In this document: positions 30,054 to 42,661 of the stretch, piece after piece
Numbering within the stretch: position 1 is the stretch's first letter
Layout of the letters: the number at the start of each line of letters is the position of its first letter
DNA from: Turneriella sp.
GTDB taxonomy: Bacteria; Spirochaetota; Leptospiria; Turneriellales; Turneriellaceae
Assembly: GCA_965279515.1 (NCBI GenBank)
Contig: CBDIID010000003.1
Location: 3,168,001-3,232,000, forward strand
DNA length: 64,000 nt
Reading direction: 5' to 3'
Translations under genes and position numbers: made by a program
The notes under the pieces: generated by a model
The model's input: only the letters and a program-made list of their open reading frames with translations
Told to the model about the DNA's origin: nothing
The model's database searches: none

Positions 30054-30278
30054 CTATTTCTTTTTGATGAACTGGTCGAGGTCAGGCGGCAGATGCGATT
30101 CCGAAGCGGCGCGGTTCTCTTTCTGTATCTCAGCATGGATCTCGCCGCGGAAAACTTTGACTTCTTTGGGGGCCTTAACGCCCAGTTTCACCTGGTCGCC
30201 TTTGATTTCGACGACGATAATCTCGACGTTGTCGCCGATGACGATCGAATCGTTAACGCGCCGCGCGAGAACCAGCAT
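30054..30278 (-). CDS. csrA: Carbon storage regulator
   Basis: [34 protein letters not shown]. Confidence 0.96.
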
Positions 30279-30745
30279 CAGGCATGTCCTTTGGCGCGCG
30301 TGTCATCGGTATGATCGACGAGATCTAAGAGCGGCGTGCGAACCAGGTGGTTCGGATCGTCGGAAACAAACTGGCTGCCGAGCTTCTTGGGGCGGTTCAC
30401 CAGTATTGGCCCCTGCAGGTTGATCGTCATGCTTTCGGGTTTGCCGGCAGGCACGGTGATGATACCCCAGATCTCCACCTCAGCCGGCTGGGAGGCTTCG
30501 ATGATGGTCAGGTGTTGTGTATTGATGTTAGGGACATACTTGGTCGTGATCTCGGGAATCAGGGTGACAAGAAACGCCAGCCGTGCCTCTTCGAGGGATT
30601 GCAGCCAGTGGAAGGTACTGCCCGACTTGGTGGGCAAAAGCGCGAAGTGGCGGAAAGCCTCAAACGCGAAAAGACCTTCCGGGAAGAAGATCTGCTTTGC
30701 GGCTTCTATCTCAATTTTACCGAGTGCGCGTGTTTCAAATTGCAT
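30278..30745 (-). CDS. fliW: Flagellar assembly factor
   Basis: [13 protein letters not shown] and [11 protein letters not shown]; adjacent to csrA. Confidence 0.93.
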
Positions 30746-30796: not shown

Positions 30797-31233
30797 AACG
30801 CAGAGTACGCTGAGTTACGCAAAGTTTCATAGTTGATGGGCAATCCGTTTCATGCCATTCTTCAGGCTTGTCACGTTAAAATTCAGGAGCAAACCAAGTT
30901 TCAGACCAGATAATTTAAGATATGTCAGCACCTGAGCTCCGTGTAATGGCAGCAATTTTTCAACTGCCTTGATTTCAAGTATCAGTGCATCTTCAATCAA
31001 TAAGTCGATCCGATAACCAGCGTCGATCTTAATTCCCTGATAACTCACTGGACATTCTACTTGCTTTTTAACTTTAATATCGTTCTTTGTAAGTTCATAA
31101 GCCAAGCATGCTTCATATGCGCTTTCGAGTAACCCCGGGCCTAGTGCTGTATGAACCTTCATAGCCGCACCGATTACCTTGCTGGAAAGGATGTTCAAGT
31201 CCACACTTTGCGTAACTCTGCGTCCTTTGCGTT
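30797..31233. mobile_element. Putative inverted-repeat-bounded GxxExxY cassette
   Basis: 29-bp inverted repeats (26/29 match) at 30797-30825 and 31205-31233 enclose essentially only the GxxExxY ORF; AT-richer than the flanks; interrupts flgL-fliW. Confidence 0.65.
30827..31204 (-). CDS. GxxExxY protein (PD-(D/E)XK nuclease superfamily)
   Basis: VHTALGPGLLESAYE, YRIDLLIE..ILEIKAV and QVLTYLK..GLLLNFN. Confidence 0.93.
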   Translation of the reverse strand: MDLNILSSKVIGAAMKVHTALGPGLLESAYEACLAYELTKNDIKVKKQVECPVSYQGIKIDAGYRIDLLIEDALILEIKAVEKLLPLHGAQVLTYLKLSGLKLGLLLNFNVTSLKNGMKRIAHQL

Positions 31234-32489
31234 TATCTTAAAAAATCCATCAGGGTTTGTTTGATGATGCCAGCGCCGACGCGCAGGGCATACGAGTGCA
31301 CGGCCTCGAGCCACTTGAGGTCGACGATCGATTGCGTTACGTCGACGCTTTCATTCTTCGCGAGGAGTTCCTTCGTATATGTGGTGTCCCACGCGACGCG
31401 CTTCTCATGCTGTTCGAGGCGGTTCACCCGCGCGCCCACCTCGGCGCGGTAGCGCAGTACGTTTTCGAGGGCGCTGTCGAGCGCCTCGAGGTCACGGCCA
31501 CCAATGAGTTTGGTATCGCCCTTAATGAGATCGTCGCGCAGCATAATCACGACTTCGAAAATTGAAAGACCCGACACGGTTGCCGTCGTGGCAAAATTGT
31601 TCGGCGGCTCGGGGTTTGTGCCGTCGATGAGACCCAGGTCCTGCAGAACCGTGCCGCCTTCTAAATCTTCGAGCCAGATCTGATGTGGCGATTTGGATGT
31701 CAGAATGAGGTCATCCTGCGAGCCCTTGCTGGCGCGCACTTCAACCGGTGCCGTATTGATTTTGTCGATGACGTCGTTGATGGTGTCGCCGGCCGAAACC
31801 TGGATACGCACGCCGTTGATTGCGATCAGCTGATCACCCTGCGCGACAAAACCCGAGGAGTCTTTGTTCGAGGCGATCGAGGTGTTGGTGCCCCAGAATA
31901 CACGGTTGCCGGGCAGCGTGATATCCATCTGCTCGCGGCGTTCGATCTCTCGGTTCTGCACCTGGATGTCGCCCTGGTACTGCACGCCGGTCACGGCATT
32001 ACCCTGGTCGATACCGGCAGTCTGCAAGTGCGAGTAGACGGGCAAGAACGGATCGCGTTCGATGATACTGCCGCCAAAGAGCGTGCGGCCTGTAGCGTCC
32101 TTACTGTTGGCGATATCGATGAGTGCGAGTAAGTGCTGGTTGATCTCTTTCGCCACGGCTTCTTTGAGTTCAAAACCACTGTTCGTGCCGTTCGCCGCCT
32201 GAATTGTCAGGTAGCGCATGCGCTGGAAAATTTCACCGACGCGGTCGATCTCGCCGTCCATGACATTGAGGCGGTCTTTCGCTTCACCGATGTTGCGCTC
32301 GTACTGGTCGAGCTCGGTGAGGCGTGTGCGGTAGAGCATTTGATTCGCCGCAGCAACCGGGTCTGACGAGGGCAGCTGGATTTTGGAACCCGTCGCGAGC
32401 TCGCGTTCGGTTTTTTCGAGAGCAACCTGATGCCTGTTCAAAGTCGACAGCATCGTGTTATTCTGCATGATGTTGGTTACGCGTATCAT
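31233..32489 (-). CDS. flgL: Flagellar hook-associated protein 3
   Basis: Flagellin-like termini (PSSDPVAA; RAEVGARVNRL; LMDFLR); downstream of flgK. Confidence 0.95.
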   Translation of the reverse strand: MIRVTNIMQNNTMLSTLNRHQVALEKTERELATGSKIQLPSSDPVAAANQMLYRTRLTELDQYERNIGEAKDRLNVMDGEIDRVGEIFQRMRYLTIQAANGTNSGFELKEAVAKEINQHLLALIDIANSKDATGRTLFGGSIIERDPFLPVYSHLQTAGIDQGNAVTGVQYQGDIQVQNREIERREQMDITLPGNRVFWGTNTSIASNKDSSGFVAQGDQLIAINGVRIQVSAGDTINDVIDKINTAPVEVRASKGSQDDLILTSKSPHQIWLEDLEGGTVLQDLGLIDGTNPEPPNNFATTATVSGLSIFEVVIMLRDDLIKGDTKLIGGRDLEALDSALENVLRYRAEVGARVNRLEQHEKRVAWDTTYTKELLAKNESVDVTQSIVDLKWLEAVHSYALRVGAGIIKQTLMDFLR

Positions 32490-35033: not shown

Positions 35034-35067
35034 TCCCTTGCCCCGGAATTAATTCCGGGGCAAGGGA
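35034..35067. repeat. Perfect 34-bp palindrome
   Basis: TCCCTTGCCCCGGAATT-AATTCCGGGGCAAGGGA. Confidence 0.9.
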
Positions 35068-35077
35068 GTGAAAACAC

Positions 35078-35112: not shown

Positions 35113-35349
35113 ATGTTACTATTTAACATCCACGATGCAAAATCTAATCTTTCGGGCCTGGTGGCTGACGTCGAAATGAAGCATGAAATCGTGATGCTCT
35201 GCCGTAACGGTAAGCCAGTCGCCCAGATCGTGCCGATTCAACCTCTGGGGTCGGCGCTAAAGCACAGCCCTAAACTCGGGAAGCTGAAGCTGCATTATAA
35301 TCCCATGGAAGGCCTTGCCGCTGACGAATGGCCGACCGAAGCCCGCTAA
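35113..35349 (+). CDS. Phd/YefM-family antitoxin
   Basis: NIHDAKSNLSGLV..RNGKPVAQIVP. Confidence 0.9.
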   Translation: MLLFNIHDAKSNLSGLVADVEMKHEIVMLCRNGKPVAQIVPIQPLGSALKHSPKLGKLKLHYNPMEGLAADEWPTEAR

Positions 35350-35361
35350 GTCGATCCACAA

Positions 35362-35748
35362 ATGCTGTTGCTGGATACCTGTGCGTTACTCTGGCTGGTC
35401 CAGGATTATAAGCAGTTACCGAAAAAAGTGCAATCGGCCCTGGACAAGCGGCAGGGTGCCATCTATGTTTCTGCTATTTCGGCATTTGAAATCGGCATAA
35501 AACACCAGAAGAAAAAACTGTCCCTGCCGCTGAAGCCGCAGCAATGGTTCGATGAAGTCCTTGACTTCCACGGTCTGACAGAGCTTCCCCTGACGGCTAA
35601 AATCCTGTTTGCTGCAACAGCATTGCCGCCGCACCATAACGATCCGGCCGATCGTATTTTGATCGCAACGGCGGCGTTTCACAAACTGACTCTGCTCACG
35701 CCCGACGAAGAGATTCATAAATATGCGGGAGCCAAACTTCTCTGGTAA
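35362..35748 (+). CDS. vapC: VapC PIN-domain toxin
   Basis: LLLDTCALLW, SAISAFEI, HNDPADRILIA and LLTPD. Confidence 0.93.
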   Translation: MLLLDTCALLWLVQDYKQLPKKVQSALDKRQGAIYVSAISAFEIGIKHQKKKLSLPLKPQQWFDEVLDFHGLTELPLTAKILFAATALPPHHNDPADRILIATAAFHKLTLLTPDEEIHKYAGAKLLW

Positions 35749-42569: not shown

Positions 42570-42661
42570 AACCGCAAAGGACGCAAAGTTTCGCAAAGTA
42601 ATCGGAGCAGGCAGGAAAGCTTTGATATCTTCCTTTGCGTTTCTCTGCGTACTTTGCGGTT
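42570..42661. repeat. Gene-less inverted-repeat element of the same family as the GxxExxY cassette ends
   Basis: aaccgcaaaggacgcaaagtttcgcaaag - 34 nt - ctttgcgtttctctgcgtactttgcggtt (24/29 complementary). Confidence 0.8.

Follow-up and report, generated by a model that had tools for sequence, protein, structure and literature searches.

A GxxExxY gene packaged between phased inverted arms in a Turneriella flagellar operon: a candidate enzyme-carrying member of a family of small gene-less units

Why should a flagellar operon carry, between flgL and fliW, a small gene of the GxxExxY family that is tightly enclosed by inverted repeats? We examined this arrangement in a 64,000-nucleotide stretch of DNA from Turneriella sp. 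(contig CBDIID010000003.1, positions 3,168,001 to 3,232,000), here called the window, whose numbering is used below unless another locus is named. The GxxExxY gene (30827..31204, minus strand) encodes 125 amino acids and lies between two arms, one downstream of the gene at 30797..30825 and the other, inverted relative to the first, upstream of it at 31205..31233; the whole unit is 437 bp long. A first-pass annotation of the sequence had reported that the arms match at 26 of 29 positions, and our recount gave the same figure at the same coordinates. This arm pair is the top inverted repeat of a 1.5-kb region and extends to 33 nt at 88%. The downstream arm carries three phased words of the form CGC-N-R-AG at spacings of 9 and 10 nt, has T at arm position 10 and scores 45.3 bits, while the upstream arm has G at that position and scores 48.6 bits. 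The core CGCA[A/G]AG that had been ascribed to every unit is present in five of the six, the remaining one reading CGCTGAG.

The gene fills the space between the arms almost completely. Its GTG start directly follows the upstream arm and its stop lies 1 nt from the downstream arm, and base 31233, at the outer end of the upstream arm, is also the last A of the flgL stop codon. Both host genes, flgL upstream (31233..32489, minus strand) and fliW downstream (30278..30745, minus strand), are intact, in agreement with the annotated view that no host gene is broken; csrA follows fliW at 30054-30278. The GxxExxY gene is co-oriented with flgK, flgL, fliW and csrA. It had also been described as AT-richer than its neighbours, and its GC content is indeed 42%, as compared with 55-57% for fliW, flgL and flgK, with a GC3 of 0.42 that is among the lowest 1.5% in a set of 1081 predicted genes of similar size. 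Contigs from public sequencing runs, which possibly represent the source sample, span the locus in one piece with zero differences, and thus the cassette is not an assembly artefact. As the annotation had stated, neither a target-site duplication nor a transposase was found at the cassette, and we found no sigma-70 promoter or terminator inside it. No clear ribosome-binding site precedes the GTG start. In a homologous cassette (L025:1399-1500), the gene and its upstream arm share a reading frame, and the arm follows a TTG with GAGG just upstream, so that the arm may be translated in some cassettes. The window also holds a Phd/PIN type II toxin-antitoxin pair (35113-35748), which lies upstream of the flagellar operon; in front of this pair is a palindromic repeat (~35036-35068) with further copies elsewhere in the assembly.

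The family assignment made from the sequence alone was borne out by profile searches, in which the protein scored 152.5 bits against TIGR04256 (cut-off 35) and 148.5 bits against PF13366 (PDDEXK_3; cut-off 22 bits; E 1e-43). It is the product of the only GxxExxY gene in the Turneriella genome. The gene is intact and its putative catalytic residues are present: E27, D67, E77, K79, Q91 and Y95 are invariant among 92 homologous sequences, and we take the first four to be the PD-(D/E)XK motif and the last two to belong to the QxxxY motif. The structure was predicted with a pLDDT of 96. The best Foldseek rows for this model were Cas4 SSO0001 (E 2.5e-3, TM 0.57) and lambda-type exonucleases, and a wide structure search returned restriction-endonuclease-like folds (best Z 8.2, rmsd 3.2 over 99 residues). 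The protein thus probably has a restriction-endonuclease-like fold nearest to Cas4 and lambda exonuclease, although these matches to a predicted model are modest and give its fold rather than its function. A sequence search of the PDB gave no match at E up to 10, a search of the ESM Atlas yielded no usable match beyond PF13366, and PADLOC returned only weak Cas4b and PDDEXK matches (E ~0.01). The GxxExxY/PDDEXK_3 family is very large, as 8000 of 8000 scored candidates passed, and in the portion of PMC3424549 available to us its function is listed as 'Unknown', with multiple transfers.

The arms are not confined to the cassette. A search of the Turneriella genome with an arm profile gave 54 matches of at least 14 bits, 52 of them above 27 bits, whereas reversed or complemented control sequence gave none of at least 18 bits. 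Fifty of these matches form 25 inverted pairs, namely the cassette, 23 gene-less units and one unit interrupted by an insertion sequence (IS); among the other four, two have a truncated partner, one is of a hybrid type and one is probably due to chance. Beyond the cassette, the arm family occupies about 27 other sites in the genome. The gene-less units measure 63-103 bp, with spacers of 5-45 nt (23 pairs), and, IS genes aside, no gene other than the GxxExxY gene lies between arms. One gene-less member lies in the window itself (42571..42660), with two arms, a 32-nt spacer and a position 34 nt past the stop of a bactofilin gene; it folds as one hairpin (z about -5.5). A crude gene model places 19 of the 28 elements between genes of the same orientation, 7 between convergent genes and 2 between divergent ones, and 22 of the 25 pairs are found within 50 nt of an upstream stop codon, a count from the same crude model that has no null to compare with.

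How these units arose can be judged in part from their spacers and flanks. Most spacers are unrelated, but 2 of 253 spacer pairs score at least 24, where 0.03 would be expected, and thus whole gene-less units have been copied at least occasionally. If they were instead deletion products of cassettes that kept the stop codon of the gene, a stop should often lie just inside an arm; this was seen for 14 of 46 arms, as compared with 9.9 expected (P 0.087), an excess too small to show such an origin. Target-site duplications, which may have decayed in old copies, were not apparent: 15 of the 25 pairs have no flanking direct repeat of at least 3 nt, and the repeats at the others are no longer than those between cross-paired flanks. 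The interrupted unit (L201; G000:C3:453961-455272, where G000 denotes the Turneriella genome) has a DDE-transposase IS inside the short spacer of a gene-less arm pair. This IS is present in five identical genome copies with CTAG at both ends, the other four lying outside arm pairs, and its ends are unrelated to the arms. The hybrid unit (L202; G000:C3:1276779-1276862) combines one CACGGAG-like arm with one CGCAGAG-like arm. On contig G000:C3, the 28 elements are concentrated about the GC-skew maximum, which lies near 0.31 Mb (KS p 0.0016), but the dnaA gene (4.28 Mb) coincides with neither extreme of the skew. The orientation of the pairs relative to the skew-predicted leading strand was not significantly biased (16 of 25).

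We then asked what is conserved in the arms. Partner arms are identical at 21.68 of 29 positions on average, which is less than the 22.80 obtained when arms are re-paired at random (a value this low was reached in 0 of 20,000 permutations). The pair around the gene matches better than any of the other 24. Part of the low identity is explained by a weak polarity of the arms at position 10, which is G or T (2 of 150 null fits did equally well). Alternatively, the low partner identity may reflect removal by the host of short hairpins that are too perfect. On the sense strand, G·U mismatches were not preferred over A·C mismatches either in 16 local elements (29 versus 23) or in 39 cassettes (44 versus 50). 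Since partner arms are less alike than random pairs and mismatches are not biased towards G·U, it is the word that is conserved and not the pairing. Departures from the consensus occur in 11 of 782 cells at 17 positions, as compared with 196 of 552 at the other 12, a contrast that is partly circular because the positions and the matches were chosen from the same data; decayed arms scoring between 16 and 27 bits are almost absent. A single arm folds as DNA no better than shuffled sequences (z 0.26-0.97), so that pairing is possible only between one arm and the other. Selection keeps three phased words rather than a perfect or strand-specific stem, which is better accounted for by a DNA-binding protein than by RNA processing. 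A search for covariation between protein residues and arm bases (330, 348 and 273 uncorrected tests) gave no clean link, the best signal being the last alignment column and likely an end artefact.

These properties bear on two suggestions of the first-pass annotation. The idea that the nuclease acts on hairpin ends lost ground, in that single arms are not palindromic and partner arms are less alike than random pairs. The idea that the arms pair in the mRNA and the insert is looped out like an intervening sequence was likewise weakened by the low partner identity and by the lack of a G·U bias on the transcribed strand.

The packaging of the gene between arms extends far beyond Turneriella. We collected 80 homologous loci from many phyla, 79 of which could be scored; one of them duplicates the cassette of a relative (G009, see below) and a few are close kin. 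An inverted match between the two flanks was present at 46 of these 79 homologues but at only 1 of 409 shifted controls, in line with the enrichment of GxxExxY flanks for inverted repeats that had been predicted, and in 26 of the 79 the locus's own partner arm ranked first among all partners. When 97 loci were searched for the three-word pattern, it was present on the upstream side at 65, on the downstream side at 72 and on both at 55, as compared with 9 of 968 control windows. Neighbouring genes are mostly co-oriented with the GxxExxY gene (57 of 75 upstream and 58 of 74 downstream). Among the 95 of 149 neighbour ORFs that were scanned, mostly unrelated housekeeping genes, we found neither a transposase nor a recurring partner.

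A comparison of the flgL-fliW junction across relatives, a check that the annotation had proposed, showed that the gene is not syntenically conserved: of 19 relatives with both host genes, 18 have no GxxExxY gene there and a gap of 2-130 nt. The exception is G009, which has a 57%-identical GxxExxY gene between arms built on CACGGAG instead of CGCAAAG. Seven metagenome contigs that cover the junction comprise four empty sites, two with a G009-type cassette and one that is uninformative. The arm word is specific to the lineage. Matches to the CGCAAAG-type pattern number 50 in Turneriella, 1 in G009 and 0 in 29 other genomes, while those to the CACGGAG-type pattern number 11 in G009, 0 in Turneriella and 1-6 in each of five further genomes; in two of the genomes surveyed, both incomplete (G008 and G010), arm matches were found but no GxxExxY gene was detected. 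The host tree rejects Turneriella and G009 as sisters (AU p 1.7e-7). The gene trees disagree with one another on whether the two GxxExxY genes are sisters, placing them as sisters at SH-aLRT 86, as non-sisters, or with a weak sister link (89/47) in the starred six-row clade. Because the hosts are not sisters, a single old insertion at flgL-fliW would need, by our own count, about 7-8 losses. Either two insertions may have taken place at this junction, or one old insertion may have been followed by these losses and by a concerted change of the arm word. A second junction, between trpD-like and trpC-like genes, is shared by two cassettes with different arm words (L095 and L104).

The gene-less sites are harder to follow across species. 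Seven of them were compared with up to five relatives each, and the same arm pair was present in none, but the intergenic DNA is too diverged to align and does not fix the exact ends of the units; some of these junctions are only a few bases long in relatives. By eye, degenerate arm-like words were seen at junctions orthologous to those of Turneriella in L183 (G006), L219 (G001) and L012 (G004), and they could be remnants of older units. At L181, L184, L004 and L006, the same junctions hold other, unrelated palindromic repeats in relatives, and thus such junctions collect several repeat families.

Comparison of closely related cassettes provided evidence both of movement and of long residence. 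Two of them (L055 and L068) are 81% identical over 463 nt, with the similarity ending within ~8 nt of the outer arm ends and the flanks unrelated. Within a single gene cluster, three related cassettes are each found at a different junction, one in G009, one in G012 and one in G013; in Turneriella this cluster has no such gene. In two of the three (L025 and L031), the block is 86% identical, the arm bases are identical at 58 of 58 positions, and the gene has 35 synonymous and 14 non-synonymous codon changes. The two GxxExxY proteins are 87% identical in amino acids, as compared with 62% for the product of a neighbouring host gene, which points to horizontal transfer. The pair also shares ~53 nt of a host gene end, so that the move was not strictly from arm to arm. 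Of 16 close cassette pairs, 11 share at least one flank, indicating that long residence is commoner than movement. The cassette family was absent from 50,697 phage records and present in 5 of 72,556 plasmids, and no excision or circle joints at the arms were seen in the contigs of the public runs X1-X4 or X7, a type of data that drops rare variants.

With somewhat more confidence than doubt, we read the 437-bp unit as the enzyme-carrying member of a slow-moving selfish family that also comprises gene-less copies, with mobilisation that would be directed by the arms. The nuclease would then act on the arms, and the unit would move by its own enzyme. In favour of this reading are the packaging of the gene, the gene-less copies, the lineage-specific word, the empty sites of relatives and the related cassettes at unrelated junctions, and it passed both conditions that the annotation had set for refuting it. 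Against it stand the prevalence of shared flanks, the mostly unrelated spacers, the arm matches in G008 and G010, the lack of a clean residue-to-base link, the modest fold matches and the near absence of the family from phages and plasmids. The same observations could also reflect a domesticated system resembling Ssn, in which a site-specific nuclease cleaves single-stranded DNA close to paired arms and modulates recombination or the uptake of foreign DNA, the arm pairs being kept for their benefit to the host and spread as a by-product. Cas4, which is among the nearest folds, acts on single-stranded DNA, and the gene-less units, folded as DNA, give good hairpins (z about -5.5). The near absence of decayed arms and the rarity of departures from the consensus, at positions chosen after seeing the data, suggest continuing selection at each site, and the order repeat-gene-repeat with dispersed copies matches the NTS-ssnA-NTS arrangement as given in the part of PMC11893778 at hand. 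We nevertheless consider this origin unlikely, given that partner arms are not kept complementary, that the leading-strand orientation bias is not significant and that the enzyme has a fold other than GIY-YIG.

A role at the level of RNA, in which the arms pair in the operon mRNA so that the insert is looped out or processed like an intervening sequence and the gene-less units serve as mRNA-stabilising or terminator-like hairpins, seems to us quite improbable. It would suit the position of most pairs just past a stop codon, subject to the limits of that count noted above, and the prevailing co-orientation of homologue neighbours, and the two arms are indeed paired in the cassette's minimum-energy RNA fold. 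However, that fold is only weakly better than those of shuffled sequences (z -1.85; 4 of 100 as good), G·U pairs are not in excess, an Rfam match was absent in 8 loci, and both the intact nuclease site and the spread of the arms would be left without explanation. Very improbable, in our judgement, is that the arms are a family like MITEs or REPs moved by some other enzyme and that the GxxExxY gene is cargo that landed between them. An IS did land inside one arm pair, and these junctions draw other repeat families in relatives, as such a history would predict; yet the association of gene and arms spans many phyla and tracks the arm type by genome, the sole Y1 transposase of the genome (PF01797) lies ~270 kb from the nearest arm, and the IS has unrelated ends and only one of its five copies in an arm pair.

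Several known systems resemble the preferred reading, that of a selfish family with its own enzyme. REPIN/RAYT systems, as described in the accessible text of PMC3337134, similarly combine one enzyme gene with many extragenic inverted doublets that have variable, mostly unique spacers, occur in lineage-specific types and are chromosomal. The RAYT enzyme, however, is an HUH tyrosine (Y1) transposase whereas ours is a PD-(D/E)XK protein (PF13366), and each REP repeat holds an imperfect palindrome, while the arms here are periodic and non-palindromic and form only ~28 units. The REP/RAYT analogy drawn in the annotation has thus come closer through the gene-less copies, but the HUH enzyme and the palindrome within a single repeat are absent. 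In TIRtrons, terminal inverted repeats lie directly on both sides of a gene, and some of these repeats form dimers dispersed elsewhere; their TIRYT enzymes are again HUH tyrosine transposases rather than PD-(D/E)XK proteins, and arms of three phased words are not among the TIRtron features described in the excerpt of PMC3733652 that we had. Ssn/SRM systems pair a small single-domain nuclease gene with its own flanking repeat, which is also dispersed, and many such enzyme/repeat pairs exist across phyla, but Ssn is a GIY-YIG protein and each SRM is itself a hairpin of 20-50 nt, whereas the arms here are unstructured and their mutual pairing is not conserved (PMC11893778, in part). The sole PF01541 match in the Turneriella genome lies inside a 670-amino acid frame elsewhere, and the cassette gene matches PF13366 only.

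Like IS elements and MITEs, the family has terminal inverted repeats and comprises a gene-bearing unit and short gene-less ones, but the cassette has no DDE transposase, target duplication or recent identical copies, and the family is nearly absent from plasmids and phages. Intervening sequences of 23S rRNA, which carry a four-helix-bundle ORF (PF05635), also enclose an ORF between inverted repeats inside a transcript; the cassette differs in its position at the flgL-fliW mRNA junction and in its protein family, and PF05635 was not found in the Turneriella genome. The cassette therefore departs from REPIN/RAYT, TIRtrons and Ssn/SRM in its enzyme, and from REP and SRM also in the lack of a palindromic repeat. 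We found no description of an association between GxxExxY genes and repeats in the literature searched, which included the available part of bioRxiv 10.64898/2026.10.21.760802 and excluded subscription papers and bioRxiv supplements.

How might such a unit move? In the mechanism that we envisage, each arm would be bound by the PD-(D/E)XK protein at its three phased CGC-N-R-AG words, probably in duplex form, as the 9-10 nt spacing puts the words roughly on one face of the helix. Having brought the two arms into contact, the protein would nick or cleave the DNA close to their AT-rich outer ends. Repair by the host would then finish the move, a rare event, to a position just behind a stop codon, without target duplication. 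Transcription of the gene would likely come from the host operon, and units, once inserted, would persist for long periods by vertical descent. More tentatively, and with less confidence than doubt, GxxExxY proteins in general could be the stand-alone mobilising enzymes of minimal transposons found across phyla. A Cas4/RecB-like nuclease of 125 amino acids would then read three phased 7-base words at each duplex end, with its own word for each protein lineage, and move 440-bp cassettes and 60-100-bp gene-less units behind stop codons without DDE, HUH, tyrosine or serine chemistry or target duplication.

The arms provide a specific candidate substrate for GxxExxY/PDDEXK_3 proteins, and the natural variants of the word are built-in controls of specificity. 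With one gene, one arm type and ~27 gene-less targets, the Turneriella genome is a clean test case. If the protein only cuts at these units, it would represent a third fold, after HUH and GIY-YIG, that is paired with dispersed extragenic repeats, and the family might yield very small nucleases with sequence specificity. Should the protein move the units, this would be a new transposition chemistry of minimal size, and the system would be categorically new.
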